Assembly (NCBI GenBank): GCA_030704615.1
Contig: CM060734.1
Location: 25,668,001 to 25,732,000, forward strand
Direction of reading: 5' to 3'
Length of the DNA stretch: 64,000 nucleotides
Origin: Takakia lepidozioides
Lineage: Eukaryota; Plantae; Bryophyta
Shown: positions 1 to 63,519 of the stretch, one piece after another
Numbering within the stretch: position 1 is the stretch's first letter
Layout: every line of letters starts with the position of its first letter
Translations under genes and position numbers: made by a program
Notes under the pieces: generated by a model
What the model was told of the DNA's origin: nothing
Seen by the model: only the letters and a program-made list of their open reading frames with translations
Database searches by the model: none

Positions 1-829
1 TCAGCAACAAATTCCTTTCGGACTCGGGGGCTCTTCTTCTCATGCAGTCAAAGGACATGTCGGCTCGAAGAACTCTTTTCAGCTACATGAAAGCCTCGGG
101 TTTCGTGTCGTCAAAACTTGGACATGCATCAATACTCTGCCTCTTACGAAGGGCGAGTTCCCGGGGCAGAAAGTGAGTTGGTTCCTTTCAATTCATGTTC
201 GTTGTTTTTTCGGTAAATAAAAATGCTGGGTTATGCCTTCTGTCTCATGCTCTCCTCATTGTTGACAGACACGGGTGTTCGAAGCTTTGTGCCTGGTGAG
301 GCGGAAGGACACTCTTCCTCCTGGTGTTGCTGAGTTCCAGATGAGGGACCTTGCAGCTCATATTGACCCCACCTGCGAGCCTATGGAGGATGATGTTCTC
401 TTCAATTACGTGGACTCGGGTCGAACTATGAAAAGGTCGATTGGTGTCCCTTGGAGAGGTGCACGGGAGAAATCTCCAGCTTTCATGCAGACTTTGGTGG
501 AGACATGCAGCCGTCATGGTGGACGAGTGGTCGACTTGTATGGGCACAGGTGGGGCACTTTACATTGTGATTGACATATGGGCAGTAACCTTAGGGAAAC
601 CCTGTTTTCATTTCTCGTTCTTCTTGGATTTGCAGGAGCATGTTTTCATGCTTGCAAGAGCGCCGGAAGGCACTTCTTCGGCATGGAAGCTGATACGGAG
701 CTCTTCTCGAGCGAGCTTCGTCAGCTTGAGTCGGACACTACTTCTACCCCATCCAAAGAGGGACTTCTGGAGGAGCCCGAAGCGCCTGACGAGGATCTGG
801 ACGTTGACTCCGATTTTGAGTGTGAGTAA
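1..829 (+). pseudogene. Spliced, frameshifted C-terminal part of a beta-class N4-cytosine/N6-adenine DNA methyltransferase-like gene (5' part outside window)
   Basis: Exons ~1-172, 269-549 and 636-829, with GT-AG introns at 173-268 and 550-635. Joined translation: FLSDSGALLL...GFRVVKTWTCIN / FEALCLVRR...REKSPAFMQTLVETCSRHGGRVVDL-xGTG-ACFHACKSAGRHFFGMEAD. This fits the N6_N4_Mtase pattern KP..L...I...S..GD.V.D.F.G.G.T..A....GR...G.E. Two frameshifts (~103, ~539) are needed. Confidence 0.65.
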
Positions 830-1494
830 GTTCTTCTGTAGTCGTTCAAAATATGTGGCATTTCCTTGTGTCGTTCCCGTTCGAAAAAATTGCGTAACAT
901 TGTCTATATCTGGATGTTAACATCTGCCACCATTTCTCTTGTTCCTTTCCAGAGTTCTGCACCAGTCATTGAATCAGCAGACACCTTTCGGATTCCAAGG
1001 ATACTACATGTCCCCGAGTCCCCCTAGATCCAACCGCTTGCCGGTTTACGCGGAAGCTTGCGCACGGGTGTTATCCGAACAAACACTGTATTCGCATCTC
1101 CATAAAGGTCGTGGAAAAAAAAAACGTCATGTATGTGCTGCTGTATTCATAGATGATATTGCTATTAACTCTGGCAGTGGTTCCTCTGAAACCTCCAATA
1201 TTTCTTGACGGTTCAAGTACTGAGGCTGAATAAATTGTGTTTTGGCTTTGCTTCCATCCCATACTGTTTTTCAAGTTCTCTGCGCGTTCCCGTAAGTACA
1301 GTTAGGGATTGCCTACGGTATTTCTTCGGAGTGCGGAATTGAAATGTGTGTGTGGAGTGATGTACTGCTTTGCCAAAAAAACATTTTTCTTTTCAGATTC
1401 AGTTCTGTAGTGGGCGATCTCCTCATTCCAAAGTCAGGATCTCCCACAAAATTCAACCGCAAACCTGCCATTGTTCTCGGCCACAAGGAATATT

Positions 1495-1720
1495 CATGTG
1501 GGGGCAGTAAAGAGGGATAGAAAATTAGGACATAGGGGGGGGGGAAGCACGGACATAGGTAAAAGGGGGGGGGGGGGGAGCACGGTAATAGGGGTGAGAG
1601 CACGGAACCGCGGTAATAGGGGGGGGGGGGCACGGAATTAGGGCCTGAACACGTGGATGCTTGCTGATGTGGCGTGAGCCTAGCCAGGCTCACAGGCTCA
1701 CAGGCTCACAGGCCAGGCTC
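1495..1720. repeat. G-run/GCACGG...ATAGG repeats and (CAGGCTCA)n; possible DNA-transposon subterminal region
   Basis: Three G10-G14 runs, each followed by (A)GCACGG, plus tandem CAGGCTCA at ~1684-1720. Confidence 0.4.
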
Positions 1721-1729
1721 ACGCGCAAG

Positions 1730-4045
1730 CATTCCCCGGTCCAGAAGCACTCGTTTTGCGTGGGGGAGTGGCAGATGATACCAAGGTGACCCCAAGTCTT
1801 GCAAAATGCTGCATGGATGTATGCTGCGCTCCCGAAATTTCGGTCCATGTCTGCACACGTTTGAACCCACGCTTTGCGGGCTTCAGTCTGCAGATCGTAA
1901 AAAATGCTGGAGAGGAGAACATATATCGTAGTGGTTCCTGAGAAGGTGTTCTTACAACGGATCTTCCAGAGGTGCCATAATGTCGATCCTCTAAGGGTTT
2001 CAAAGACTTGACAGCTCACTGCTCTATTCTTGGTATTCTGGTCGTAGTTTAGTAGCAAGTGAGTTGCAGAGAGGATTTTGGGTTCCATTTGAGGTAAAAG
2101 GTTTTTACTAGTGGCCATATCTTGGATGGTGCTTCACAGTGCTCCAAGGATTCCTGCATGGCAGTAGAGTAGCATGCACAAAGGACTGATGCTTGGAACT
2201 GGAGCCATTCGCCTACTTTGAGAACTCTGTTTACTACTTGCCACAAGAAAGCAGAAATCTTTGCGGGGCGAGTCTTGATCCAGACTGAGCTCCAGATAAC
2301 ATACCACCTCTCATCTCTAAATCCGTAGGTCTCCCACTTTAGCTCCCACTTAGAGGTCATGGGTTGTGTTTTGGAGAAAAGTCTTTACCCCCTTTTGGTT
2401 GTATATGAAAAGAAAGGATCTGGAGCTCTAGAGAAACGCCAGGACCATTCCAAGGGGTCGAGATCTAGTTCAGCCAAGGGTCTCCCAAGAATCCACACGA
2501 AGGTATTGGACGCAAGCTAGTCCTGAATTGGGATTGTGAGAGGTGGTAGCGGGTTGGAAGCCTTATCTGGAGAAGACCAGCAGCAGATTCGAATCGGGGT
2601 TAGTGGGATAGGTTGGATGGACTGAGGAAGGGTGGAGGAAAGGGAGAGCACTAATGTATTGGTGTTAATGCTGAAGGAGAAAATTGTAAGCTGCTATGGG
2701 GTCACATACTGGACAAAGAGGATGGATAGCTGACCTTGAAGGATCACCAGAGACCAAGTATTGTCAGCAGGTTGTGTGGGGCCTGCGTCAAGGATAGCCA
2801 ACCATTGGGGGTTGATGGAGCTGATTAGGTCATGGTAACCACGGGTTGCTCTGCTTTTACCAACCGATTCAGCAATAGATTCCATGGGCTTAGGTCATTG
2901 TTCTTCCAGACATTGTTGACCTGGCTGATGCCCCGAGTATCCCAGCCTGACCATCGCTTTGGCCTGGTTTCGCTGGGAAGGGTTTGGGGTGTTTGTATTG
3001 AGAAAAAGATGCTGTCTGAGCACTTCATAGAAGTTGGAGGGTTGGGCTTTAACCAGGTGTTTGCGGAGCTTCACGAAGCTGGAGCCCAAGTCTATACAGT
3101 GTCTATTTGTGGGATATTCGGACGAATCTAAGGCTTACAAATGCTACAACCCCCAGACTCGGAAAATTGTCGATGTACGCTTTGAGGAGGGGGTATTTCC
3201 TCACTCGGCAGCAATGGCTACGCCTTCACTCCAGCGTATCCCTCGAGCCCCTGTCCATCGACTCGGCCGCAATCCAAATCGAGAACCCCCGGGCTTACTT
3301 GGATCCCACGCCCAATACGCCCGTCGCGGTGTCAGCGCCTGCACCAACTCCAGCGCCCGCGCCTATTCCGGTTTCGCTTCCTGAAGCCAATCCTACCACC
3401 GCAGCGCCGGCTGACTCTCCTCGGAGCTCCAGCACCAAATCCAATATTCAAGGCTCCTGCATCGGAACTCCGGCGCTCCACCCGCCCCCGCTCCACATCC
3501 ACTCGCCTGAAGGACTACGTCACCAATGTTGTCTGTTGCCATATATTGTTCCAAAGAGCTGATCCAACTGTTTTAAGATTGAACCCGTGGGTGATCCAGT
3601 GTAGCGAGGGCTGCCATGTGGGAACTTTGAGGGGAGAAGATGCGATTATGTGATCATAAACCAAAAATTTCCAGCAGCCTCCCTCAGGCCCCAAGAACCT
3701 TGGAATCCATTTGCCAAGGAGGGCATTGATTTTGGATTCTAGATCCAGAACTCGCAGACCGCCTTTCTTTTTTGGGAGACATATTTGCTTCCATCCCACC
3801 TGCGGTCTTTGTTTTCTGAGGCATTGGATGCCCCCAAGACGAAGTTTCTAAGTGAACGCCTAGCCTCTTGGATTTGGAACCCCAGTATGTGAGTTTCTTT
3901 TTGAGCTTCACCATCATTGGGGCGAATTTTGGGTGATATGTAAGGTCAACACCGAAGGTGTAGCCAAGTAAGGTGGTGGACTCTCCTGGTTTTAGCCAAG
4001 TAAGACCTGCTTGCTTTAAACTCGTTGGGTAAGCGTAGTCCTGGC
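1730..4045 (-). mobile_element. Degenerate L1-like LINE, 3' part of ORF2 (post-RT region plus zf-RVT)
   Basis: WKQICLPKKKGGLRVLDLESKINALLGKWI; WSSVWIKTRPAKISAFLWQVVNRVL...CACY...ESLEH; TLWHLWKIRC. Broken by stops and frameshifts. Confidence 0.85.
3073..3535 (+). mobile_element. Ty1/copia internal fragment (integrase C-terminal SH3-like region plus Pro-rich linker) inside the LINE
   Basis: KLEPKSIQCLFVGYSDESKAYKCYNPQTRKIVDVRFEE is the typical copia post-integrase motif. No LTR is visible. Confidence 0.8.
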
Positions 4046-4695: not shown

Positions 4696-7707
<3,012 letters not shown>

Positions 7708-10186: not shown

Positions 10187-11430
10187 CTATTCATCACCCT
10201 CAAACAAACCGGCTTTAGAAATGAGCTCCTCATTCTCGTCAACAAGTGTATCCTCGGATTCAAAGAAATTAGTCAATTTTCCTGCTTCAACTAGCTTAAA
10301 ATCTGTCCTGGCATCACTTGGCCGATTTTTATAGATCATGACTAGCTTGTCAAGGCTTTTCACACCAAGACGACAACGTCGCAATGAAGTGAGCACACCA
10401 GCCATTGAGAAAATCCTCTCGATTTCTATTTGAGAAACTGGAATGCCTAAAATCTGCCGAGCAAGATAACCAACATTGGGAAATCGAGTCTCATTTTCAT
10501 ACCACCATTTCAGAGGGTCCAGGTTTTCAACATCCTCAACATGATACCGACGAAACAAAGACAACTCAGACTTCAACAACCCTTCACTTGCTTCCTCATT
10601 GGAAACTGCTGAACCAAACAAAGAATCACTTCGAGCTGGCTGAACCACCACTGGATTCACAGTTTGAGCACGTTCGGGACTTACAGGGACCAAAATAGTG
10701 TTTAGAAGAGGTACCAGAATCCGTCCATCATACTGTTTCACCAAATCAGCAGCCGTACCCCTTCCAATGTAATCCATGATACACTGCAATCATTTGAATC
10801 GGGGATCCAACATTAATGCAAGCATGTTATGTGCTCTGACTTGTGAGAAAGTTTCAGCAAAAGCCAGAAAAGATTGTAACACGTCAGTGACCTGAAAAGC
10901 CATGCGAGCATACAATATCTCTATTTCCTGGTCAAAGTCCCCACAACGCAATGGAGGCACAACATTAGCTCTCCATCAACAATCCTCTTCATCGTGATCA
11001 TAATGGCAAGAGTAGAGTGTAGTGCATCTGACAACAGCCAACGACAGCCAATAACCTCTACGCTAGTTAAGTAAACATTGATGTACAACATGGTTTAGTG
11101 TTTCCGTCACTGCCTGAGCAATGGCCCATGTGCAACCAGTGGGCACCCTGGATTGTAGAGCAGCGGTCTGCCGTGTGTAACAGATGTTGATAGCCTAGGC
11201 ATACTCCAAAGTCTCTTGGAACAATATAACTTGGAAAGCAAAACGAGTTTTCACCAGGGTCTTAAGTTTCCGTCATGCCTCTATTGCAAGCCTTGTCCCA
11301 AGTAATGGTTTTCTGAAGGGCAGCTTGTGCATCTTTCAGGCTTACTTCCTTCATGCCCATACCAACCTTGTCTTGGTTTGTGGCATACTGACATGCATTC
11401 GACATAGCATGGCCAAAGCAGGGGATTTGA
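10187..11430 (-). mobile_element. hAT-superfamily transposase relic (C-terminal part with dimerization domain)
   Basis: DPLKWWYENETRFPNVGYLARQILGIPVSQIEIERIFSMAG in ORF 10187-10789. Upstream broken frames give HNMLALMLDPRFK and CFGHAMSNACQYAT. TIRs were not identified. Confidence 0.9.
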
Positions 11431-14816: not shown

Positions 14817-15542
14817 TGTCGCGGCCCTTTGCCTTGAGGGCAGGGGGTCGGGACACATGAGGGGCTGCCCCTGTAGTGGGGGCATCGGCAGCGATAGGTA
14901 TGGGGGCTGAAGCACCCTTGAGTGCCCAAGGCATTCAAGGAGGCGGAGGCGCTCACTAAGTGGAGCCCCGCACACCGGGTTGCGGTGGGGGTGGCTCCAC
15001 AAGGGGTGGTGGTAGCTTAGCGGGACTTAGTGGGGTGGCATAGGACTCACCATGGGGGCGGAGACCTCGTGGTGGGAGTCGTGGGGAGCCTTGGGGACTC
15101 ATCACGGTCCATAGGGCCGTGTGATGAGTGGGCCAAGACTCACCGCGACTCATCACCGGGAGTCGAGGGTTTTCGTGGTGGTTCGCCATAAAATGGCATG
15201 GCTGGTTATGAAACCCCCGCGGACAGCTACAGAAGTATATATAGGGAGTGTAGTACCCCGAGAACGGTGCAAGCCCGTTGGTGACCAAAACTAGTGAGTA
15301 AGCGAACGAGCCAGAAAAGCGACCAAAGAGTGGGGAGCTGTTCCGGACTGCCATCTACCAAAGGGAATTCTCCTAGTCCCAAATAGGTGGAGGGTTAGAG
15401 GGAAGCGAAGGGGGACCGTTATGTCCCGGTGAGCAGCCAAAGCTCCAAGTTGGCCCGGGCGGCCAGGTTGGGAGTCAGGCGCGCGCATCAAAGCGAGTAA
15501 CTATGACTTGAAGGGGAGCTTACCGAAGTGAGGTGCGCGACA
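14817..15542 (+). repeat. 5' LTR (726 bp)
   Basis: TG...CA ends with a 7-bp terminal inverted repeat; TATATATA box at ~15236; matches 21054-21778. Confidence 0.95.
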
Positions 15543-15544
15543 CT

Positions 15545-15556
15545 TGGTATCAGAGC
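15545..15556 (+). promoter_or_regulatory. Primer-binding site, tRNA-iMet type
   Basis: TGGTATCAGAGC, 2 nt after the LTR end. Confidence 0.95.
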
Positions 15557-15596
15557 TTAGAGTTCAGTACGCGATCGTCCTGGGATTGGCCTCATC

Positions 15597-18500
15597 ATGG
15601 GGTCGGGCAAGCCAAAGTGAAAGCGGAACGGCCCAAAAGATGATGATCCTGGTGAGCCCGATGGGGGCGACGTGTCACCGAGCGGCCGTTTGAGGAAGCG
15701 ATGAATGTTTCCGAAAACGAGGCCGCTCAAGAGCGGGAGGAATCCGAGAAGTCGGAGCCCGAGGAATCCTTGAGAGCTCTGACAAACCAAGAGATGCCTC
15801 CCATGCCGGCAGCCTTTTGGGAAGGGTGTTGGCGCAGTTTGGCGGGACGTTGAAAGACGTGTTGAAGGCGGCTAATGCCACTTCCACTAAGGCAAAGTTT
15901 AAGGTGAAGCCTAAGGAACCCGGCACCTTCGAGGGCGTTCGAAATCGGAAGGCACTCAACACCTAGCTCCTGGAGCTAGAGCAGTACTTCCGGGCGGCCA
16001 AGTTGAGTGACGAGGATCGGTGGAAGTGGCTCCCACCTATTTGAGGGGCTATGCTCAACAATGGTGGCAGAAACGCCTTCACGACCGAGGCCCAAGCCCG
16101 GAAACCTTGAACTGGAGTGGGTTCAAGGAATTGATGAAGAGATAGTTTGTGCCCCTCAACGCGTCCTGGCTTACCCGGGACAAGATTTGAAGCAAACAGA
16201 TGACATTCGGGGGTATGTCCAGGCTTTCAATGTGCTATTGCTCGAAGTCGCGGACATGGCAGAACCAGAAATGGTCTTCAACTTTGTGGCGGGACTGGCC
16301 CCATGGGCCAGGCGGAAGTTGGAGGAGAAGCCACCCAAGACTTTGAACGAGGCAATTGAGAGGGCTGAATGTTTCTCGATGTCCCTAGGGGTGAGAGACA
16401 AGGCCGTACGGAGCTGAACCACAAGAAGACCCGGCGGGAAGGTGACTCTTTCCGACCGGAAAAGAAGTGAGATAGGCCACGCGGCGATAATGGCACATGG
16501 AAATTGAAGGGAGGGCCTTCACACGTCAAGGCGGCACCCGGTGCTTCGAAAGGAAAAGCGGGTGGAGCGGCTTATGGCGGACAAAAGGCGACCTTTGATG
16601 GAGTGTGTTTCAATTGCGGGGAGCCGGGCACATGGCCAAGAAGTGCACGAAGCCTCGGCAATTGAACATGACTCGGGCGACCACGGAGCTGTCGGAAGAT
16701 ACCATCAGTCGCTTGGTGGAAGCGGTGGTCGCCAGGACTTGCAAGGTAGGCAACTATTCTTGTGAGTTGTATCAGGAAACTGGCGCCCTGCGTAAAGGGA
16801 GTCAGTTATTGTTCGTGGATGGGATAATATCCGGAACTAATGTGTCGTTGTTGGTGGACACAGGAGCGTCGCACTCCTTCATGACACTGGCGGCGGCACA
16901 AAGCTGGGACTCCCGACAAGTGACGTGGGGGCCTCTATGAGGTGCGTTCTGCCAAAGGAGAACCACAGTTGGCGACAAGGTTGGCGTTTGGCGTTTAATG
17001 TTCCTCTTCAACTGGGGAGTTGGGAGGGACGTGAGAACTTCACCATCTGCAAGATCGATGGAGTAGATCTCATTTTGGGGATGACCTTTCTGAGTAAATC
17101 CGGAGCGGTCATAGATGGCCGCAAGAGAGTAGTCACGCTGCCATGTGGGAATGGTGGCGAGGTCTTACGAGTGTCGGAAACGCCCAAATCCGTGGGAGGG
17201 CGAATAAACCTTCTGTCAGCAAGGAGTGGGCCGTGGAGGAGGCACACGAACCCCAGTTTTTGCTTTACATTAGAGAAGTGAAGGGAGAAGGCGATGGGGA
17301 GCCGAGCCCAGATTGGATCAAGGGGATTTTGGAGAAATACCAGGATGTGATGCCGGAGGATTTACCAAGCGGCTTGCCACCGCGAAGAGGAGTTGACCAC
17401 AAGATTGAGGTGATACCGGGATCGGAACCGCCTGCCAAGGCGCCCTACCGGTTGAGCCACATAGAGTTGGTCGAGCTGAAGACTCAGCTCAAGGATCTAA
17501 TGTCAAAGGGGTACATCCGGCCGAGTAAGTCACCTTACGGAGCCCCGGTGCTATTCGCAGACAAGAAGGATGGGACGCTGCGGATGTGTGTCGATTACAG
17601 GGCTTTGAATAAGGTGACTATCAAAAACCGGTACCCTTTGCCAAGGATCGACGACCTCTTCGATCGGTTGGCAGGAGCGAAGTATTTCAGCTGGATCGAC
17701 TTGCGCTCCGGCTATCATCAAATTCGGGTGGCGGAAGGAGATGAGGAGAAGACCGCGTGCAGGACAAGGTATGGTTCATATGAGTTCTTGGTGATGCCTT
17801 TTGGGCTCACCAATGCACCAGCGACCTTTAGCATGCTGATGAACAGCCTTTTTCAGGAGTGGTTGGATGACTTTGTGATCGTGTACATCGACGACATCTT
17901 GGTGTACTCGAAAACAAAGGAGGAGCACCTGGAGCACCTCAAAAGGGTGTTCCAAAAGTTGCGGGAAGGGAAGCTGTACGCCAAAGCTTCAAAGTGCGAA
18001 TTCGGGGTCACGAAAGTGGAGTTCTTGGGGCATTACACAGGATGGGATCAAAATGGATGACAGAAATGTGAGGGCAATCTTGGACTGGGAGCCTCCGACT
18101 TCGGTCCCGGGAGTGCGATCCTTCCTAGGACTCGCCTCCTATTACCGGAAGTATGTGAGAAATTTGCCAAGATCGCGGGGGCCGCTGTCGGACCTTCTGT
18201 GTAAATCCAAAGTCTGGGTATGGAACACATTTTGTGGCCAAGCTTTTGCTGAATTGAAGCAGCGGATGGCGGAAGCTCCAGTCTTGAAAATCCCGGAGTT
18301 CGATCGTCCATTTGAGATTCATACAGATGCGTCGGACTTCGCGATTGGGGGTGTACTTATGCAAGATGGACGTCCAGTGGCTTACGAAAGTAAGAAACTG
18401 AATGAAGTGGAGCGACGGTGGCCTACGCACGAAAAAGAGATGAAGGCAGTGGTGCATTGCCTTGAGCTTTGGCGCCACTATGTTGGTTCCAACCCAGTGA

Positions 18501-20148
18501 AGGTGTTCACGGACAATGTCACGGTGAAGTATTTTGCCACGCAGCCCAAGTTGTCCCCAAAACAACTTAGGTGGCAAGATACTTGGCGGTGTGTTCGACG
18601 TGGATATCCAGTACAAACCGGGACGAGACAACGTGGTGGCCGATGCTTTAAGTAGAAAGCAGCAGCTCTTGTTGGTGTACAAGGGCGAGACGGCGCTCCA
18701 AAGGAAGATCCGAAAGGCTTGCCGGAAGGATGAGCTGGCGAAGTCCGTGATGCAGGACTTGAGGATGGGGGTTAAATCGCAGTTCCACTTGCAAAATGTA
18801 CTGCTCCGGTATAAGCAAAAACGTCTCTACGTGCCAAAGGGAGGGATCAGAGATAGCCTCTTGAGAGAATGCCATGATAGCCCGCTTGCGGGCCACGGCG
18901 GAGCCAAGCGCACTGCGGCACTCTTGAAGAAAGAGTATTTCTGGCCCAAACTGAGGGAGGAGGCAGAGGAGTATGTCAAGACATGCACCACATGCCAACA
19001 AAACCGGAGCGAGTACAAAAAGCAAGCGGGGCTGTTACAACCCTTGCCGATTCCAGAGGGGACTTGGGAAAGCGTCTCGATGGATTTCATGACTGCTATG
19101 CCGCTGTCAAAAGGGTTCGATGCAATCATGGTGGTGGTGGATAGGTTCAGTAAAATGGGCCATTTCATCCCCACCAAGGAGACGGCAACGGCGCAGGAGA
19201 CAGGGCGACTTTACTTCGCCCACGTCTTAAAGCATCATGGAGTCCCTAAGGATATTGTCTCGGATCGCGATCCAAAGTTTACGAGTAAATTTTGGAGGAC
19301 ACTTTGGAAGAAGATGGGGACGAGGCTGAAGATGAGCACCGCCTTCCGACCTACGACCGACGGCCAAACAGAAAGGATGAATTCCGTAGTGAAGCAGATC
19401 TTGCAGAATTACGTGTCGGCAGACCAAACAGACTGGGTGGAACACTTAGAGACGCGGCAGAGTTCTGTTATAATAACACAGAACACTCCGCAACGGGAGT
19501 TTCCCCTTTCGTATTGGTCTATGGAAAAGCACCTCTGGTGCTGACAAGTTGGGCCGCCCAGGACGTTGAGGAACCGGCAGTAGCGGCGGTACTGGAAGAA
19601 CGCGAGCGTTTGTTGAAGCTCGCAAAGTACAACATTGCCAAAGCAGGAAACGGTATGAAAGGCAGGCGAATCGGAAGCGGAGGGAAGTGAAGTTTGAGGC
19701 AGGCACAGAGGTCTGGTTGAACATCAAGAATTTCCGACTACCTCCGGAAGTGAGTCCGAAGTTCGTACCTCCGTTGCGGGACCCTTTCGCATTCGGAAGG
19801 TTATGAATGAGGATGTGTATGAATTGGAGCTGCCGGCAAACAGCAAGGTGCACCCAGTATTCCATGTCTCCCTTTTGAAGCCTTACTTTCAAAGATGAAG
19901 CGCGTCCGAATCGGCATCAAGTGTTGCGTCCGCCACCTATGCTGTTGGATCATGAAAATGAACCTGAGTACGAGGTGGAGGCAATACTTAAGTCGAGGAG
20001 GTTCAAGAACGAGAAACGGAGTATCTCGTCAAATGGAAGGGCTATCATCATGTGGAGGCATCTTGGGTGCGTGCCTCAGAAATGGGAAACGCATCTGAGG
20101 CGGTTGCAGCTTTCGAAGGGCGACCTCAAAAGCGAGAAGAAACGTTGA
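15597..20148 (+). pseudogene. Frameshifted gag-pol of the chromovirus
   Basis: Zinc knuckle CFNCG..GHMAKKC; protease LVDTGASH; RT YIDDIL; RNase H TDASDFAIG; INT HDSPLAGH..C..CQ and VSDRD; chromodomain EYEVEAIL...YLVKWKGY. Confidence 0.93.
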
Positions 20149-21053
20149 TGGGGACATCAACCTTGGAGCGTGGGGGAGGAAATGCATGCTTAGCCCGGCT
20201 TAGCTAGCTTAGGAATCCGATTACAAAAACTTGTATTGTACAAAAATTTGTTATAAAGGAAATGGGTTCCAAATGTTGTGCGTCCTATTTTGTTTGGAAT
20301 GGTGATGCATGGTATGGTTGGCTAGTGTGTAGAATGCATGCTAGCTTATAAAAGTGGGAGAGGTAAATTGGGTTAATCGTGTGTTTGCGTAGTGCCGAAA
20401 TCGGGTGACCCCCATCCAAGGGGCAAGGAAACTTGCGACTTCTTTGGGAGTTCACGTGCTAGTGCGCACCTGGCGCGTGCGCGTACTATAACTGCGCTAC
20501 CGAGGGGGTTGCCTTGTAGTGCGGGCTAACGCGGAAGCTACGTGCTTCCGTTCACGTACTATAATCGTGTAGCCTCGGGACGAAGTCGTAGTGCGGCTTC
20601 GGCGTGTTCCCGTACCTCAGGCCAGCATTCCAAGGCGGACCCAATTGTAGTGATTGGGGCGCACGGTTGGTTCAAGGTTATCTTCCTAGTCAAAGAGGGT
20701 TCCAGGGAACCCTTGCTCAAGGTGATGCCAAAAGCGGCATCATGAGCGATCGCAAGCAATGTTGTTGCAGTAAGGCGATTCGATCCTCGGGGAGGATCGT
20801 TCCTTGGCCTTGAAGTAGGCCAAGAAGAGTGCACTGGGAGGAGCTGGAGAGGCTCCACCCTTGGCCGGGACTTGGAGGAAGTCGGCCGAACTAGCTAGTG
20901 GAGAGTAGAGTCAAGTGTGGGGTTTGGTTCTTTGCCATGGGACGCCATGGTGCGGAAACAAACTCCTTGATGTGGGACGCCACAACTTGGATGTTCGTTT
21001 CTACAAAATGGACAAGTCGATGAGGACATCGACTCCCTGTTGGTAGGGGTGTG

Positions 21054-21778
21054 TGTCGCGGCCCTTTGCCTTGAGGGCAGGGGGTCGGGACACATGAGGG
21101 GCTGCCCTTGTAGTGGGGGCATCGGCAGCGATAGGTATGGGGGCTGAAGCACCCTTGAGTGCCCAAGGCACTCAAGGAGGCGGAGGCGCTCACTAGGTGG
21201 AGCCCCGCACACCGGGTTGCGGTGGGGGTGGCTCCACAAGGGGTGGTGGTAGCTTAGCGGGACTTAGTGGGGGTGGCATAGGACTCACCATGGGGGCGGA
21301 GACCTCGTGGTGGGAGTCGTGGGGAGCCTTGGGACTCATCACAGTCCATAGGGGCCGTGATGAGTGGGCCAAGACTCACCGCGACTCATCACCGTGAGTC
21401 GAGGGTTTTCGTGGTGGTTCGCCATAAAATGGCATGGCTGGTTATGAAACCCCCGCGGACAGCTACAGAAGTATATATAGGGAGTAGTAACCCCGAGAAC
21501 GGTGCAAGCCCGTTGGTGACCAAAAACTAGTGAGTAAGCGAACGAGCCGGAAAGCGACCAAAGAGTGGGGAGCTGTTCCGGACTGCCATCTACCAAAGGG
21601 AATTCTCCTAGTCCCAAATAGGTGGAGGGTTTAGAGGGAAGCGAAGGGGGACCGTTATGTCCCGGTGAGCAGCCGAAGCTCCAAGTTGGCCCGGGGCGCC
21701 AGGTTGGGAGTCAGGCGCGCGCATCAAAGCGAGTAACTATGACTTGAAGGGGAGCTTACTGAAGTGAGGTGCGCGACA
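21054..21778 (+). repeat. 3' LTR (725 bp), preceded by PPT-like TGGTAGGGGTGTG
   Basis: Matches the 5' LTR and is followed by the TSD TTCTA. Confidence 0.95.
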
Positions 21779-22636
21779 TTCTAGCTGTTGATTCTCCCCT
21801 TCTCTCTGTAATGGGGAATCAGCCGTCGAGTTGATGATGTCATCTGCTGCTGCACTTGTGGTTGCTTCGTTGATCCGGGCTCTCTTTGCAAGTCCGCCCT
21901 CTTCTTCTTCCTGAAATGTTGCCGTCTCACTTCCTTCTTCCTCCATTGTGTGTACCCGTTGCATGATTCCCAACGTCGCTTGCTCTTCGGCCGTTAGGTG
22001 TACGGTGTGTCGAATCATCTGGAGTAACAATGGAGTTGCCATGGTAACAGTCGCTTCCTTCTTCTTCTTTGTCAACCTGGTCAGTTCTTGAGTTAACTTC
22101 TTCAATAAGAAGCTTGCCCAATTCACGATTTGCCCATTGAAGCAAATCAACACTTGGTCGATTAGCTCTTTGGTACAGTAGCTATGGTTTTGCCTGATGA
22201 GGCAAAGCAATGTGCTAAGTACTGGGGCTATCTTCCTGAAGCCATGGTTTTTGTTGTGGTTGCATGTGTAGCCTTGATTTGCTTGGTTGAGATTCTCAAA
22301 CAAATCTGCAAGTACAAACCTTGGAGGTTTGCCGGTGTGCGGTGGTACGTCCAGACTGGGAAGGTGAAATACTTCCGCCAAGTACTTCTCTGTCAGCAGG
22401 ATGTGCGTGTCGTGGACATTTGTGCTCCAAGTGCTGGTGTTGTAATTCTCCAAGAACTCCCTGCATAGCTCGTCGTGCTTCATGTTCCAATCCAGCGTGG
22501 TGATGAAGTATCGCAGGCCAAGATTGTCCAACGTCTCCTGTGTCTCTGTGTCCTGCTCAATCTTCCGCAACGCTGGGCTGATTTTGAAATTGACTTGCGC
22601 ATAAGAACTTGGTGCCTTCCGCTTGGTGCCTGCCAT
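21779..22636 (-). pseudogene. 5' part of the post-pol accessory ORF of the non-chromovirus element; continues from 14816 to ~12700
   Basis: Starts MAGTKRKA...ELCREFLENY...VNWASFLLKKL. Removing the insertion joins ENQQLE to GGTKPQTNEST. The downstream part is coiled-coil-like and frameshifted. Confidence 0.75.
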
Positions 22637-23350
22637 TTCTCTTAGTCTCGTGGTTGCTGTAAGGAATTGGAGCACCAATTCCTGTATCACAAGAAGTATG
22701 AAGCACACTGGAAGTTGTGTATACAGCAATTTCCAGTTTGCGGAAGAGAAGGTGAGGAGTTCGCTCCTGGGTTTAAGTAGGGGTTCCTCTCTGTAGGTTT
22801 CTCCTCTAACTTCTCTCGAGGTTCTTGTGGAGGTAATTCTGTCCTACTGGTTGCCTAGGTTTAAAGCGTAGTTAGCTTTAATTGCTGGGCCCAGGCTTAC
22901 CAATAAGCATTTAGCCTCAGGTAACGGTTTTGTGAAAACTTCATCCCTTTTGTGCTTGATTTTCTTCCGTTGGTTTTTTCTTCGTGATTTGTTTTGTTTA
23001 AAACTGATGGTCGTTGATGATTGTCCAGTTTCGGTCAGTTTATGTTCATCCCTCTGAGCTGTATTCATCCACTTTGGTATGTGGTCCGTTTTTAGATGGG
23101 CGGCGTTGGCGCAGTACTTGCAGCTTGGTTTAATGGCTTTGCCCTTATCGTCCGCCGTCTTTTGGCAATCCGTTGGATTGCGCCGTCGTTCCGCCTCTGT
23201 GTTATGATCGAAGGATAGTGGTGTATGATTACCACTGTCGGTGGGGTGATCTGGAGCATACATCTCGGAATTTAACACAAGCAGTGACTCGTTGGCCGTT
23301 TCGTATTCGTTCACTGTTCTGTAGGGCATCTGTGCTGGCCACGGTTCACC

Positions 23351-26300
23351 CTACGGTATACGGGGTGGTAATGTTGTCCTCCAGATAAATGGTGGTCTAG
23401 CCGTCGTGGTGCCCTGAATTCGTGTTGCCACCTGTCTTAGTACATGCTGATTCACCGCGTCGTGATGAATGTAGTAGGCATTGGTGGTTTCGCGCTCCTC
23501 CTCTTTAGTTTGATCTTTCTCGTTGGCGTATAAGTCATGTATAAGGGCTTTGTCATGTATTCCTTGGTAGCCTTTTAACTTGTTAATATTAATTCGTCCC
23601 ACGAATTCTTGTTCCAAGGTTTGCAAATCAACAGTTCCATTGTCATGTACCCTTTTGATTTGAAATGGTCCCATCCATGGCATTTTCAATTTTCCGCCCA
23701 ATTTGATCTTCTTGATTTTTGGTAACCATAATACAATATCCCCGTCATGGAAAGATTTCTCTTTCCCTTCGGATATTCTTTTCCTTCGTTGTTCCTGGAT
23801 CCGTGCCATATTATCTGCGGCATCTGCTCGAACTTCTTTCAGATGGAATAATTCATATTCCCTGACTCGTAATGATTCTTCTAAGCAGTGCCTCTGCTCC
23901 ATACACCAGTTGAAATGGTATATGCTTCGTGGTCACCTTGTATGATGTCTTGAATGCCCATAGTGTTGTGTTCAATTTGGTGTCCCAATCTGTACGATTG
24001 GCATTTACTATCTTGATTAAGATAGTGCATGATATTTTGTTGGTAGATTCGGCCTGACCGCTTCCTTGAGGATAGTAAGCAGTACTCTTGTGATGTACAA
24101 TCATGAACTCCTCCGTCAAGCATTTTATAGCATCATTTATGAAGTGTGATCCCTGATCACTGACGACTGCTGCCGCTCTGTGAGCATATTTGTCCATGTA
24201 TCTTCTGTAATAGCTCGTCTGTCCCAGAAATCTCTCGAGTTTCTTGGGATTTTCTGGTGGTGGTATTTTCTGGATAACCTCCACTTTCTTTGGATCTACT
24301 AGAATTCCCTGTTGGCATACAATGTGTCCCAATAATAATCCCGAATTCACATAGAATGTACATTTTTCTGGGTTGAGACTTACTCCATTGTTTCTGCAGG
24401 CTTGTAGGCAAAGTTTTAACTGTGCCAAATGTTTGGATTTCTGTCCAAAGACACTGAAATCATCCAAAAATACCTGCATAAAATCATTGAGATAGTTCTT
24501 GAATATCTCACATACTGCTCGTTGAAATGTGGCTGGTGCATTGCAAAGTCCAAATGGCATGACTTTATTAGCATATGCTCCCCATTCAGTTATGAATGCG
24601 GTCTTTTCTCGGTCTTCTTCTGCCATGTGTACCTGGTTGTACCCACTAAACCCATCCATGAATGAGTACATCTCATGTCCAGCCACTGTGTCCAACACTA
24701 TTTCAGTGAAAGGTAGTGGAAAAGGGTCTTTCTTGGTTCCTGTGTTTAACTTGCGGTAGTCCACACACACTCGTAGTTTTCCATTTTTCTTGGGTACTAT
24801 CACAATGGGTGATAACCATTGTGGTGTCTCTACTGGGTATATGAATCCTGCATCCAGTAACTTCTTGATTTCTTCCCAAACTTTAGCTGTATAGTTGGGG
24901 TTCATTCTGTAACGGTTCTGACAAATTGGTTTTGTGTCAACTTCCAATTCAATTCGGTGCTGACAGATGTTAGAAGGTATACCCTTCAAATCCTTGTAGT
25001 TCCAGGCAAATACATCCTTGTATTCAGTGAATAATGCGGTGGCTTTTTGTAGAAATGATTCTTCAAGACCTGCACTCACTCGTATTATCTGTGGTTCTTC
25101 CACTGTTCCCAGATTCACTTGAATCAATTGAGTTTCTTCCGTTATTGTCCATCCTGCAATCTCTTGTCCGATGGTTGCAATTGTGGCAGGTACTTCACTG
25201 ATTTGAATGTCTTCTTCCCTTTCTTGATAGAACCGGGCCGGGTGTTGAGGTGTGTCCATCGCTTCTTCCTCTGGATCTTCATTTCTCGAAGTATTTGGTT
25301 CTCATTGGGTGTTCACCATGTGACATCCTACTGTTGTGGTATGCTTGACCACCAGTTGTCCTAGTGGGCAACCAAATCATGTGATGATGTTTTCATATAA
25401 GAATTTGGCTGTTGATCTGGCAGTGTTGTCTCTTAGTGCCTTGGCCTCTACCCATTTGGTAGTGTAGTCAGTGGCTGTGAGGATGTATTGGTTTTGTGTG
25501 TACCTTGCTGGAGGTTTAATGGGTCCCACGAAGTCTAGCCCCCAGCGCTGAAATGGTTCTGTTGGTAGTATTGGGTGCAGAGTCCCCTTCCCCGTTCATT
25601 CTACTAGTCCCATCCTCTGGCAGACATCACACTGTTGACAGTGTTTATAAGTATCTCCAAATATAGTAGGCCACCAGTAGCCTGCTAGTAATATTTTCTT
25701 TGCTGTCAGGTCCGAACTGAAGTGTCTACCTGCAATTCCTTCGTGTAGTTCTTGCATTACTGTTTTGGCTTGGTCTTTGTTTACACATCTAATCATTATG
25801 GAGTCAATTCCTCTTTTGTACATAATCCCTTTGATTAATGTGTATGGCTTGCTTTTCATTGAAAGCTTCCTCCTGTCATCTTTGGTGTAACCTTCAGGAA
25901 TTTTCCCTGTGTTCAGATAATATTTGATTGGCCATTGCCAATCATCTTGATCTTGATCCTGAATATCTTCTAATTCTTCTTTGGTGACTGTATAAGCTCC
26001 AATACTGATATTGGCCAATTCTTGATTGTTTGTTTCTTCGTTTTCCTTGTCATCTTCTTCTTCTGGATCTGGCTCTTCTTCAATAATAAGTCCTTCATCA
26101 AGAGGTTCATCTTCATCGGATGAATCTTCTTCTTCATCTGTGTCGTCCATGAGTTTGAGAGCATCTGGAAGGTCATAGTCTCCTTGAAACATTCCCAGAG
26201 CATTTATAGGATCTGTCTCTTCATCTGGTGCTTCTGGTTGAACAACAAACAGAAATGCATCGGGAAGTTGATCCTCTACCCCCGTGGCTGGTTCTCCTGT

Positions 26301-27403
26301 AGTAATCCTTGACAGATGATCTGCTGTAACATGTAATCTCCCTGGTTTATGAACAACTTCAAAGTCATACTCATGAAGAAGTAATAACCATCGAGATGTG
26401 GATGTGCTGCGTATACTGTGGCTTCTTCTTCATCCGACAGTCCACTGGACCAATCATATTCTTCCACTATGCAAGGTCGTTTCTCTCGTGGAATGGTACC
26501 TCGTTGCTTCGTCGTGATGGTGACTTGTTCTGTTTTTTTTTTTTAAATTGTGAGAGTCTGACTTCCCCAATCGTGGTGTGATTGGGCTTGTGTTAACCAT
26601 GGTCGGCCAAGTAGTAGTGAATATCCCTCTGCCACATCCTCCATTCTGAGAATGGTTACTGATATTTCGTATACCAGTCCTGCTACTTCCATTGCAAGTC
26701 ATCTGATAATCCCCAATGGCTGTACTTTTCGTTGATCAGCCATTCGTATCGTGAATGGAGCAGGTTCCATGTGCCCCAATCCTAATGACTTCTTCATCTT
26801 TTCTGTCATGATATTCACTCCGGATCCTCCATCGATGAGTACATTCGTTACCATCTTCCGTCCAATACGTACTTGTATTACAGGTATTGCTTCGTCGTAA
26901 TCTGGAGTTTGTCGTATAGTTGTGGGTTTAATCGTGTAAACCTCTGGTGTTGGTTTTTGTTTTGGTGTGGGGGTCAATGCCTCGATTGCCCGAAATAAAG
27001 TTTTCTTGCAGTGTGGAGCAATTTTTAATAATTGTCCAATGGTAATTTGGGTCTTGGTCTGGCAGATTACTTCAGCCAATTCTGTTTCCGTGGTTGTATT
27101 CATGGTCTTCATCGTTGGTCTGATTTGCTTATCTAGAGTTGGCTCTCTAGAAGGTATATGAGTTCCCTCTTGCATTTGAGCTATGGCTTTACTTACTTCC
27201 TGGTGTAAGCTCTTTTCCTCCTGCCATGCTGCACTTTCTGGATATTGTTTCCGTTCTTCTTCAATCTCCTTATCTGGAGGTTTCTGTTTCTTGGCCTGAG
27301 TTCGGGTTACCGCAAGAGTATCCACTACAGGGGTTACCACACTTACGGCTACACTTGGTCCGGCTTCCATATTTCCCACTTCTGCCACATGCTTGATTCG
27401 CAA
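23351..27403 (-). pseudogene. Scrambled pol: PR, RNase H tail, INT(N), RT, INT(C)
   Basis: Order on the minus strand: IDGGSG; RWLLLLHEYDFEVVHKPG; HEGIAGRHF..CDVCQ; [13 protein letters not shown]; RT (CVDYRKLN, FLDDF); SDQGSHF..YYPQGSGQAE; WMGPF. Confidence 0.9.
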
Positions 27404-27418
27404 CTGGCATTCATGTTT

Positions 27419-28789
27419 CTAGTGTCCCTCTTTCTTGCAATAGTGGCATCTCGTGCTTTCTTTGTTTTTGGGTTGATGGTCCCTATCCCTTGGTGGATAT
27501 TCATTTCGTGGCCTCTGATAATGATTACCCATGTTGTATCGTCTTGGTTCATCCGATCCTCCCCGTCGGATTTGGACTTGGTGTACCCCCACCTCTCGTG
27601 TGTACCCAATCTTCTTGGCCCGTTGGTTGTAAATACAATGGCTGGTATTATGATTGTTCATATGACAAATATCATAGTATTTGTCCTTCATATGGCATTC
27701 CGTTGCCAGGTGTCCTGAAGTCCCGCATTTGTGACACCATGTTGCCTTTCGTGGCCCTTCATCTTTAAAATTCTTGATAGCCTCTGCTATCTTTAGATCC
27801 AAAGTGGTTTTGTCAATCACTTCTTTCTTCTTTTGCTTGGGGTTTTCTTCATCATCAGAGTCTTCTTCTTCCAAGAGATCCTTGGAATCTTTGCTTCTGT
27901 TCTGATGGAATCCCAATTCCAACTTCTTTGCAGTCCCTACTGCTTCAGCCAAAGTGTTGTTAGGCATGACTGTAACCATGGTTACGTATTCACGACGAAG
28001 TCCATTGATGAACCATGATTTTTGCAAATCATCCCCTGGTGCTTGAGGTAGTTTCCTAATCAGAGTCTTCATTCTCTCCAGGTAGTCGACTACCAATTCT
28101 TTCTTTTTCTGTCTTAGGTTCTGTAATGCTGTGAAGATTTCAGACGTGGATTTGTTGGATCTATATCTTTCTTGAAATGCGGCTCTCATATCCGCCCAAT
28201 TCGCAAAGTGATTGGCTGGGAAAGTTGCCAACCATTCAATGCCTTTTCGGGCCATTGAACAAGGAAATAGTCGGATCTTCTCTTGGTCTGTTGCTTCATT
28301 GTAAATGATGCACATGTTTTCAAATTGATTCAGATGGATATCTGGATCAGATTTCCCATCATATAAAGGAAATGGTGGTCTGGTTTTGCTTGCTGCTAAA
28401 GCCATCGGTGCAGCTGGTGCAACTGGTTGTCCAAACTGGGATGGTCCCGCTACTGCTGGCTGTGGTGGTGTTGGTGTTTGTCTTCCAAATAGTGATTCAA
28501 AGCTAGGAGGTCCTTGTCCCAATGATAGTCGTCTTCCAGCTGCTGTCCCTACTAAGCTTAATGAATCTTTAAAAGCTTTGAGTGCAGTTCTGGTTATCCT
28601 TTCTGGAGAAGTGCTTTCACTTCTTTCACCTTCTTCACTAAAAATGTTATCAAATCTTTCTTCTAATATTTCAGCAAAACCTCTATTTGGGCTTGTTACT
28701 GTAGAAGGTCCTTCAGATCTTTCTTGTGGTAACCATTCACCAAGTACATTACTGACAACTTCTTCTGGTGTAGTGTTCCCAATTCCCAC
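27419..28789 (-). CDS. Retrotransposon Gag with zinc knuckles
   Basis: 456-aa ORF: YDGKSDPDIHL, LRQKKKELVVDY, WFINGL, CHKCGTSGHLATEC, CHYCKKEGH. Confidence 0.9.
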   Translation of the reverse strand: MGIGNTTPEEVVSNVLGEWLPQERSEGPSTVTSPNRGFAEILEERFDNIFSEEGERSESTSPERITRTALKAFKDSLSLVGTAAGRRLSLGQGPPSFESLFGRQTPTPPQPAVAGPSQFGQPVAPAAPMALAASKTRPPFPLYDGKSDPDIHLNQFENMCIIYNEATDQEKIRLFPCSMARKGIEWLATFPANHFANWADMRAAFQERYRSNKSTSEIFTALQNLRQKKKELVVDYLERMKTLIRKLPQAPGDDLQKSWFINGLRREYVTMVTVMPNNTLAEAVGTAKKLELGFHQNRSKDSKDLLEEEDSDDEENPKQKKKEVIDKTTLDLKIAEAIKNFKDEGPRKATWCHKCGTSGHLATECHMKDKYYDICHMNNHNTSHCIYNQRAKKIGYTREVGVHQVQIRRGGSDEPRRYNMGNHYQRPRNEYPPRDRDHQPKNKESTRCHYCKKEGH

Positions 28790-28829
28790 CGATCCGATTT
28801 CCTGATCTTTTGGTTTATCACTGTTTGAT

Positions 28830-31800
28830 GTATCACCTTGATCGGCAACTGGTGATATCCGGACCGCAAGTCCAAAGTGCTAAAGACCTTGGCATGCCCA
28901 ATGGCATCAAAGATCTCCTCCGGTGTAGGCATGGCATACTTATCGGACTTGGTCTGACAATTTACAGGCCGATAATCACCGCACATACGTCTCTCCGTCC
29001 AATTGGCATAGACATCCTTCTTGGCTGGCATCACCGTGGCTGAAGCATACTCTCCACCAGAGAGCTCCACCAAACCAGCCTCCCAGAGATCTTGAGTCCT
29101 CATCTGATTTGGCGTGTCCGTGGCCAACTCAATACGAATTTCCTGACCCTTCAGTGCTCCCAAATCCTTCAAATTGAAGGCAAAGCAATTCCTGTAAGCC
29201 CTCAGGAACCGCCGTATACATCGTCTCTCTCCTCCGGTGACAATGGGTCCAATGTCAGACTCCCAATTGTCCTCCGTAACTGCAACCTTAAGTCCAGCAG
29301 ACTTAGAGGTAGGAGATGCGTCCCGTGGTTGCTATGCCGCAACCTGTTGAGCAGTACTCCCTGCCTGCTCAATCAATGACAAGGCCTCATCCTACCCAAT
29401 CATCTCATCTTTGAGGACCTCCTCAACCCGAGAAGAATCCCCAACCTCATCCATCACAGCCGCCTTGGCTGCCAACTCTCTCTGAACCTCGAGCACCTCC
29501 CATGTGTGCCATGGATGTCTACACCCTGTGGTCCTCACCGGCTCGCCCCTACTCACTGCCTGTACCGTCTCGGTAGGCAGAGAGACCGTCAAGGGAAGTG
29601 CACTCCGCACTCTACGTTGTTCAGCCATAGCCAAGCTGATAATCCAGGTTAAGCAATTGAGATCCATCGCTTGCCCCAACACCTGACGACGTGATGCCTC
29701 AAAAAGAGAAGGCACCGCTGTGGTCCTAGTGGAAAAACCCATAGCCCGCTCTCGCTCATCGACATTAGGCTCCACTAACTGCTGCAACTGAGCATCCCAT
29801 AGGAGGCCAGGTCCACTATCCCGGAAAGCATGCGATCCTGTGGTATAGGTAGTGCTCGTGGTCGACCCACATTGTTGACCACTGCCAAAGGCGACCGGTC
29901 ATCGTGTCTCACACGCTGAGACTGCCTCCCTGTGTCCAAAATGCTATCCACTGTGAGGTATGCTGGCCGCTGCGCCCCATCAAATGCACGCTTGAGCAGT
30001 GCGGGTGGTATCAAGTTAGTCCACCATAGCCATGGACGATGAGCCCGTGACCCCACTGTAGCTGCATCCAGCAACACTGCTGACCCAAGCCACGACCGGA
30101 CTTGGTGCACACTGGCCATCATCCTGGCCCGAGAATCGCCCATCAGTGACACATTCTCCAAGATGTATGCTGGAGATACAGCTTGATGAAGCTGTAAATG
30201 GCACAAAACCCGCACCATCTCCCAAAACAGACCCGACCTCGAGTCTCGCAATCCATTGCCATGCCCGGCTGATGAATGCCCTTGGCAGGGCCAACCTGCC
30301 ACTACAAGATCAATGGAGCCAATCCGCTCCAAATCTTGCACCCCCAGCAACGAAATGTCTGCTGGCAAGGCCTGCTGATATCCACGAACTGCAGACACCG
30401 GCAACAACTCAGGGTACTGTTGCACCAACTGAGCAACATGGCGTAGGGAGACGCGTCGTGCAGTCTCATCCCTTTCCACATACAAGTAACGCCGTACCCA
30501 TACACCTACCTGTAGCACAGTAGCCAATCCGGTGCTGATCCCGCCAAACAAGTCCAGAAGGCAAATGCCTTCATCCGGACATTGCCACACGATCGGTGTG
30601 GTGTCCAATGGTGACAATTGAGATGGTCCTGGTGCAATCCCCGCACTGTCCTCCTCTCCTAATGGTACAAAAGCCTCTACCCAGGCCTGTTGCACCCGTT
30701 GATCAGCAACCCGCTGCAAATCCTTGCTCGAGCCCCACAATGGAGTGTGAGCAACCATGACAGGCAACTCTGCCATACCATACATGTCATCCTGCTCTCC
30801 CGGAGGTGACACATCCTCTGAATGAGTGTTGCCATCCAACAACTCTCCAGGCCAAGTCACTGCAGCTGTGAATGCTGCCAGTGTTGGCATCTTGCCTAGC
30901 TGGGCAACCGCAACTCCTCCTATGAACATCACGGGGAGCTGCACACGCCGACCCTCCCCTGACTGCCATCTAGGCCTATAGGAAGTTGACTCCTCCCAAA
31001 ATCCCAGGGAGAAGTCCATGGGGTACAACACTGCCCCACCAACAATGACATCGTACGAGACCGTGTCTGTCATAATGGCCTTGGCTCTCATCACTGAGCC
31101 ATCTGTAGGATGATCCGGCTGTAGTCTGATCGCCAACTCACGCCATGTCATGCCTCGAGCCTGCTCTGATCCTCCCAGAGATGTATGTATCTGGAAAGGG
31201 CACGGCTCCATATCCGCCCCCATGAGGCCCAAGCCTGCAATAGCAGCTCTGCCCAACATCAATGGCTGAGCTCCCGAGTCCAACAAGACCCGCAGTGGCC
31301 GGTATCTCTTGTCTGCCGGTCCACTCAAATAGAAAATGCCATCCTGGTTGTCTAACATGACAACTCCAGGTGTCACCATGGCGCGCTCAATGGCTGGCCT
31401 AGCTGGCAGTTCCATCAACCTGGCAACTGCAGCTTGCCATGGCGCCACCGTGGCAGTCTTGACCCTCATATTCGAGGATCCCTCCGGCACTACACCTCCC
31501 ACTATCTCCACAGAAGATGAAGTAACCTCCCCACTCTCACAGAGTGTAGCTGCCAGCCTGAACACCTCAGCTGGTCTTACCCCCGGCGTCGCAATCATGG
31601 TAGCCGAGAACAATGGAGCCCGACACACCAATGTGGCCACCCCCAGCAGCACACTAGCTGCCGTAGCCTTGGCAACACTAGGTAGTGGTGCTGCCCGTGT
31701 AGCTCTCCCCAATGGCATAGTAACATCCGCCTCGGTAACAGTCGGGCGAGAACTAGGTGCCATGGACGGCGTCGACACTGTCTCCGCCAATGTGAATGAC

Positions 31801-63300: not shown

Positions 63301-63519
63301 TAGCTATTTCATGAGCATGAGCGGCATGAGCGGAGTAGTAAGACAATCGGTTTTCATGAGCAGAAGTACAAATTCTGCAAATAAAAAAAATGAAAAACAT
63401 TATTTTAATGGGATGTATCCAAAAAAAACAATATAATATTCATTGTTTGAAGTAGAAATTGTAGTTTTGAGAGCCGTGCTCATGATATTTCGTCTTCCGC
63501 TCATGCGAGTTGCGAGCGA

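Follow-up and report, generated by a model that had tools for sequence, protein, structure and literature searches.

The left edge of the 64-kb stretch of land-plant DNA analyzed here (the window) carries a spliced and frameshifted gene encoding the C-terminal half of a beta-class DNA amino-methyltransferase fold. Our best overall reading, to which we give a probability of roughly 60%, is that it is an accessory gene at the end of a likely DNA transposon, that the methyltransferase fold is likely non-canonical or inactive, and that the product likely helps the element to bind and protect its own DNA. The parts of this reading are taken up below with the evidence for each, together with the alternatives that they bring with them.

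A spliced gene with two frameshifts

The gene lies on the forward strand and can be followed through four exons. Exon 1 (1 to 172, its 5' part being off-window) encodes the strands that follow motif IV in the methyltransferase fold, and ends in AAA before the donor GTGAGT; exon 2 (269 to 549) encodes WRGAREK in the motif X region and motif I (VVDL..GTG), and ends in CAG before GTGGGG; and exon 3 (636 to 825) encodes motifs II and III (ACFHAC..GRHFFGMEAD) and an acidic tail, with two donors 4 nt apart at its end, such that it closes at either 821 or 825. Intron 1 (173 to 268; 96 nt, GTGAGT...TTGACAG) is placed by sequence; it begins where the nearest relative, P0132, departs from the alignment, and read depth dips at 181 to 240. 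Intron 2 (550 to 635; 86 nt) splits the last glycine codon of motif I, at a position that is shared family-wide. The three exons, canonical GT-AG sites, and two frameshifts described in the earlier note are as claimed. The frame breaks are at about position 96, which is one base short, and at 538/539, which is two bases short. Other DNA copies carry a 1-nt insertion at 96 (five X1 contigs and one X5 contig) and a 2-nt insertion at 538 (five X1 contigs and three X5 contigs), and because these insertions fall at exactly the two positions, both breaks are lesions that are absent from many other copies. The window copy of the gene is dead.

The window pieces were scored on a profile made from 52 rows of the family, none of them from the window. 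The two parts of exon 1 (3 to 95 and 98 to 172), exon 2, and exon 3 score 20.0, 22.1, 72.3, and 11.8 bits, respectively; the four pieces are colinear on the profile, and their joined score is 166.9 bits, with shuffles (200 per piece) reaching at most 1.3. The test is partly dependent, as the family was gathered with queries that include window exons; however, exon 1 was absent from the query of one relative search and aligns to the relatives found by that search. The exon and fold signal in the window is far beyond chance. None of four window pieces matches Pfam, nor does the read-through, and blastn and tblastn searches within the 64-kb window found neither a second copy nor an upstream part of the methyltransferase gene.

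Splicing is seen in contigs from other copies. None of the runs is recorded as RNA; run X7 contains three GT-AG joints in ATG8 and therefore behaves as RNA, a check that covers X7 only. One X7 contig (record 16) covers 308 to 539 and 633 to 821 with 18 mismatches, skipping intron 2 with the frame kept, and after 821 continues with exon-4 letters. An RNA-type contig of run X8 (record 26) skips 822 to 952, joining 821 to the next exon. The RNA-type contigs thus bear out two introns, the second and a third (822 or 826 to 952) that was absent from the earlier note, and show no joint across 173 to 268. The spliced transcripts, which read D-L-S-M-G-T-G at motif I with both glycines present, belong to paralogs and not to the window copy.

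The third intron likely contains the TAA at 827 to 829. Because both RNA-type contigs skip past 821, a gene end at 829 is improbable, and the gene likely extends as far as about 1208. Exon 4 (953 to 1107, forward strand) has exon-like depth at 961 to 1080, and matches both P0088 (10/17 identities; E 4e-4) and the last exon of L003, a relative with a nearly complete gene (E 0.005). With the 826 donor, exon 4 is coding (SPP..LP.YAE motif) and the frame is open to a TGA at 1206 to 1208; with the 822 donor, a stop codon forms across the junction and exon 4 is untranslated. In the long form, the final coding segment and the stop codon may lie at 1153 to 1208 (forward strand), where the frame is open with or without a short intron at 1108 to 1152; no RNA joint for that intron was seen in the RNA-type contigs. 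Tandem donors following a Cys codon are present in the window (821 to 831), in L003 (4153 to 4163), and in L004, and are altered in L001. Such donors would yield a short and a long protein.

The gene lies at the end of a highly repeated element

In run X1, 1,281 contigs align to positions 1 to 1800, and 868 of them are <99% alike. Their summed depth ranges from 10,134 to 53,357 across 1 to 1320, with dips in the introns, and drops from 26,258 to 501 beyond about 1740. Against the depth of 69.9 on the single-copy reference, a unique contig of 3,595 nt that covers ATG8, the ratio is 150 to 760. The summed depth should not be read as a copy number, and short overlapping contigs raise it further, for which reason we give the number of copies as likely some hundreds. 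The count is nonetheless high and transposon-like, and the gene is not a lone relic: it is part of a high-copy repeat with other copies that lack the frameshifts.

The depth fall coincides with a fixed right end of the element (1725 to 1737, forward strand; ...GCATTCCCC). Contigs of X3, X5, and X8 depart at 1737, each to its own flank, and the window provides a fourth; the four flanks have no common target motif. Inside this end are G-rich subterminal repeats (1520 to 1640, forward strand; GCACGG..TAATAGGGG; repeat family D6), whose length differs among copies. An imperfect hairpin just inside the end (1655 to 1733) is weak, with a folding energy of -25.5 kcal/mol (z -1.98) that is equaled by 8 of 200 shuffles. 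The combination of a fixed end, changing flanks, and subterminal repeats is the anatomy of a mobile-element end. Window positions 1 to 1737 form an end of an element that is highly repeated and likely a DNA transposon, and the methyltransferase-fold gene is very likely mobile-element cargo. No left end, transposase, or target-site duplication was seen for the part of the element within the window. The element ends in CCCC, which differs from the CA..TG termini described for most CACTA-type elements (PMC12730594). The earlier note had offered "domesticated" and "transposon-borne" as alternatives; high copy number, the fixed end, and the four flanks support the second, and the first finds no support in a gene that lies in a repeat of this depth with a mobile-type end and whose family lacks PPY.

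The encoded fold is that of beta-class amino-methyltransferases

The AlphaFold model of relative P0007 has a mean pLDDT of 58.7, with core blocks at 70 to 89. Its top seven structural matches are all beta-class DNA amino-methyltransferases: CcrM (Z 12.7, rmsd 4.0, 193 aligned), MboIIA (Z 12.0), BceJIV (Z 11.8), PvuII (Z 11.0), HpyAVI (Z 11.0), RsrI (Z 10.6), and N4CMT (Z 10.5). C5 enzymes begin at Z 6.7, and a Foldseek search with the same model agrees (best E 1.3e-7). A family profile of 59 rows, window rows included, matches CcrM colinearly from motif IV to motif II at E 2.5e-5, and N4CMT at E 0.47. PDB sequence searches with exon 2, P0004, and alignments A3 and A4 returned no methyltransferase match; the deeper alignment A7 alone reached CcrM. 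The best PF01555 score among 21 long relatives is 26.3 bits (E 8.3e-6), under the gathering cut-off of 26.7, and the atlas places PF01555 at 0.81 for exon 2, which we treat as a lead only. Of the two routes proposed earlier for recognizing the domain, structure gives a Rossmann methyltransferase match through P0007 and Pfam does not. The P0007 model, the CcrM profile match, and the window pieces on the family profile are in accord: the fold encoded in the window is that of a beta-class amino-methyltransferase, with its C-terminal half present.

An old eukaryotic family

Word-based searches recovered 11 relatives and four loci, and a full HMMER scan recovered 646 clusters at E ≤ 0.001, with 193 at 1e-10. 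The HMMER relatives examined are the best 150 of the 646 clusters, some of which match in the N-terminal part only. Among the relatives with the motif X-I pattern, 43 of 45 turn non-homologous right after motif I, at the position of window intron 2, and the family is therefore an old eukaryotic one. Several clusters have 4 to 10 members on different long contigs, which fits a multicopy state elsewhere. Among the long matches to the window, P0088 ranks first (33%; E 2e-26). In a tree of 43 rows, picked for covering motif IV or the whole domain, the window groups with P0132 (support 100) and, one step further out, with P0131 and P0178 (97), over an overlap of only about 55 residues; L003, with its near-identical protein P0008, is on another branch of the family. 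Searching phages by tblastn with P0088 gave weak matches only (E 0.01 to 0.9), mostly to annotated methylases, and the ParB-like exon of L003 (see below) gave no phage match.

A cyanobacterial host of L003 and L004, as the bin label of G001 would have it, was rejected. Because these contigs carry spliceosomal introns we take them as likely eukaryotic contamination of the cyanobacterial bin, which has two copies and no further contig with the repeats. The L003/L004 protein is named as cyanobacterial in NCBI and UniRef, despite its intron-bearing eukaryotic repeat contigs.

Motif IV of the relatives appears constrained but non-canonical

We aligned 158 rows, of which 55 cover motif IV and 54 were scored for motif I. 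The family sequence DLviaD-I-P-E-gL aligns on CcrM DLIFADPPYNL. Asp at position 1 and Pro at position 3 are each present in 46 of the 55 rows, and position 4 is Glu (38), Asp (11), Lys (5), or Ser (1), and aromatic in none. Most relatives read D-[VIL]-P-[ED], and the loop that follows (GLPVP...WN) is strongly conserved. The window's own motif IV is off-window; its nearest relatives P0132, P0131, and P0178 have DLPE, DLPE, and DLPK. At motif I, Asp is kept in 53 of 54 rows and the T-G pair in 46 and 44, the first Gly is present in 14, and Pro-Phe is replaced; the window retains the motif II acid (GMEAD). The earlier prediction that motif IV lies N-terminal is correct, with the upstream exon present in relatives and off-window here, but the (S/D)PPY expected there is not what the 55 relatives carry.

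The motif IV Tyr of N4CMT is modeled as stacking on the target base (PMC10406627), and the first residue of motif IV, together with the backbone, is described as accepting hydrogen bonds from the amino group (PMC4738411). With Asp and Pro kept and the aromatic gone, the family has the part of the motif that makes hydrogen bonds but not the residue that stacks. The site appears constrained and non-canonical, and inactivity on bases seems appreciably more probable than activity. We would not expect canonical 4mC/6mA activity in this family, and because the aromatic is missing from 55 of 55 relatives, the 4mC/6mA writer implied earlier is less likely than claimed. Since relatives lack the usual catalytic aromatic residue, the gene product likely serves the transposon as a helper protein and not the host as a writer of 4mC/6mA.

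Nonetheless, the kept Asp and Pro, the Asp, Thr, and Gly of motif I, and the motif II acid could equally reflect a working but unusual active site. This leads to an alternative in which the protein is an active amino-methyltransferase, with D-x-P-E and a nearby conserved Trp replacing xPPY, and intact copies protect their own element from host 5mC silencing by marking it with 4mC or 6mA. The strong conservation of the GLPVP...WN loop and the two motif I glycines in the RNA-type paralogs would suit such an enzyme, and for the algal counterparts, too, modification of their own sequence has been predicted (PMC12477816; 10.1101/2025.02.11.637652). We nevertheless judge it unlikely, given that position 4 is non-aromatic throughout, where the N4CMT Tyr is modeled on the target base, and that even the best PF01555 score stays below threshold.

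Whole-gene layout and a candidate ParB-like N-terminus

The layout of a nearly complete gene is seen in L003, which has seven exons and six GT-AG introns, with 1,040 codons to exon 6 (about 1,040 to 1,140 in all). Four palindromic units (21 to 362) occupy the first 370 nt, upstream of the gene, and the contig ends inside its repeats. The first exon (552 to 1178) carries a DGNHR motif, typical of ParB-like domains. It has a weak PHROG match to ParB-like proteins (E 0.25), and its atlas neighbors are an unnamed cluster (0.95), DUF3723 (0.94), and ParB_N (0.92); in the neighbor clusters the DUF3723 family is assigned to 31 to 47% of members and ParB_N to 11%. Searches of Pfam, NCBIfam, and PDB sequences with this exon gave no match, and its single-sequence model (pLDDT 35) is unusable. 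P0088 has in common with L003 an upstream exon (E 3e-13) and the tail, and stops short of the ParB-like exon; because of these common parts the L003 layout is likely family-wide. We consider a ParB-like N-terminus probable for this family, a call that comes from one relative, L003, on another branch than the window. Fungal DUF3723 clusters are among the nearest atlas neighbors of the L003 exon, and Starship elements carry DUF3723 as a conserved cargo gene (10.1101/2021.12.13.472469). DUF3723 may be a ParB-like domain common to giant elements; our literature search found no paper with both terms.

A plausible scheme for the helper protein is as follows. The intact gene would be about 1,000 to 1,100 codons long and, like L003, would encode a ParB/DUF3723-like N-terminus, which would bind the palindromic subterminal repeats. 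The methyltransferase fold would still bind SAM and DNA, although without the usual base methylation, and would serve as a DNA-binding or anti-silencing module; the transposase would be encoded upstream or supplied in trans. The intact product likely binds its own element.

The type of element is a separate question, and the gene could instead be cargo of one that does not move by cut-and-paste, whether Helitron-like, tyrosine-recombinase-based (Starship-like), or an endogenous virus. A hairpin lies a few bases inside the end, the L003 first exon resembles a Starship cargo gene, and no transposase is seen with the part of the element in the window, although its left end is off-window. We consider this explanation improbable, however: a Helitron-type end was considered but the hairpin is weak, the flanks have no common target motif, none of 143 pattern matches on viral contigs was confirmed as a relative, and a ParB-like gene with tandem palindromic repeats next to it is the layout described for Plavaka DNA transposons (10.1101/2025.02.11.637652).

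Relation to known systems

The closest known kind appears to be the algal transposon accessory gene, and not N4CMT or DN4MT1. The brown alga Ectocarpus has an accessory gene in Sola1-1_Ec32 whose 1,104-aa product is reported to combine a ParB-like domain with an N4/N6 DNA methyltransferase, with binding and modification of the parent element as its proposed function (PMC12477816). The family described here would match that gene in layout, as a likely DNA-transposon accessory gene with a candidate ParB-like part, an amino-methyltransferase domain, and a similar length (1,104 aa versus about 1,040 to 1,140 codons in L003). Sola1-1_Ec32 belongs to Sola-1 and has AACCG..CGGTT termini, whereas the land-plant element ends in ...TCCCC. 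In the red alga Bostrychia, PF01555-SET and ParB-oxygenase accessory genes are described beside tandem inverted repeats, and Plavaka accessory genes are said to move between DNA transposon superfamilies (10.1101/2025.02.11.637652). The red-algal genes (PAG2 and PAG3) are similar as mobile cargo with a PF01555 domain and a ParB-like gene by tandem inverted repeats; however, they are separate genes, one a fusion of the methylase with SET and the other of the ParB-like domain with a 2OG oxygenase, whereas in the land-plant family a single gene would combine the candidate ParB-like part with the methylase fold, and its PF01555 scores do not reach the cut-off. VANDAL anti-silencing proteins, as presented in the same preprint (10.1101/2025.02.11.637652), are alike in proposed role only, as accessory proteins acting on their own element.

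The family has in common with the beta-class enzymes of PF01555 (CcrM, M.MboIIA, M1.HpyAVI, M.PvuII, and M.RsrI) the fold and the motif order IV...X-I-II-III, and differs in having D-[VIL]-P-[ED] for (D/N/S)PP(Y/F/W), a D-L-T-A-S-T-G type motif I for DPFxGxG, and spliceosomal introns. The eukaryotic 4mC cases still named as such are DN4MT1 and N4CMT (PMC12344493), which are likewise eukaryotic genes of bacterial beta-class origin; Marchantia MpDN4MT1a/b are described as a tandem pair with TSPPY (preprint) and bdelloid N4CMT as an allelic pair with SPPY and a chromodomain (PMC8885841). These are low-copy host genes with an intact SPPY and shown activity, in contrast to high-copy cargo without PPY. 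That the window gene is a decayed duplicate of such a domesticated host writer is largely refuted and very improbable, as the shared fold (including the structural match to N4CMT), introns, and spliced RNA are outweighed by a depth of 150 to 760 times single copy, a mobile-type end, a family without PPY, and an N4CMT score on the family profile of only E 0.47.

Transposon proteins known to act on the chromatin of their own element are few, and the algal ParB and methylase genes are predictions. Although the window copy itself is dead and ordinary, the same apparent layout is present at high copy in a land plant, is spliced in RNA, is invisible to Pfam, and has a catalytic loop that is changed family-wide. 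We found no land-plant description of such a family in the literature, and none of the D-x-P-E motif, but journal coverage was incomplete and a prior description may exist. A bolder possibility, which we hold to be doubtful, is that land-plant DNA transposons carry a large and old ParB-like plus amino-methyltransferase family in which the rebuilt D-x-P-E site still marks the element's own DNA (4mC/6mA), or flips and shields its bases. If true, this would be an anti-silencing system of bacterial origin that transposons encode, and the disputed 4mC/6mA signals on plant transposons might come from it. If the domain is inactive, the family would be a widespread pseudo-methyltransferase with a new job. 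Methylation by a D-x-P-E beta-class domain and binding of its own subterminal repeats are both testable.

Neighborhood within the window

The remainder of the window is transposon-rich, with LINE, Copia, hAT, and several Gypsy-type pieces. A spliced plant-type ATG8 gene (6390 to 7700, forward strand) is single copy by depth, and is the source of the three X7 joints noted above. A hAT dimerization domain fragment (PF05699; E 1e-15) is at 10190 to 10789 on the reverse strand. A Gypsy-type element at 14817 to 21778 has LTRs that are 97 to 100% identical and 6.2 kb apart, and an inverted copy that is 92% alike is located at 54.1 to 56.6 kb. A second Gypsy-type element (21740 to 28879, reverse strand) has gag, protease, and an integrase zinc finger placed before the reverse transcriptase, and includes a 368-codon frame of no assigned kind (21740 to 22843).

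A further retroelement, in pieces, is at 28699 to 33497 on the reverse strand, with gag-like and zinc-knuckle frames, a protease motif, a C5 cytosine methyltransferase, and then a reverse transcriptase. The C5 enzyme (PF00145; E 8e-12) is at 29.8 to 31.9 kb, between the gag/protease and reverse transcriptase frames. This element resembles retrotransposons known to have acquired a C5 methyltransferase. A second, unrelated methyltransferase class is therefore present in the neighborhood, as had been proposed, about 29 kb away and in a different element, with no link between the two.

Near the right edge of the window there is a 10-nt tandem array (61004 to 61251) and a cluster of GGCGCC-centered direct and inverted repeats (63517 to 63850), both of which are likely ends of other elements. 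The word CGCGGTAATAGG is found in the GGCGCC-centered cluster and also in the subterminal repeats at 1610 to 1621.
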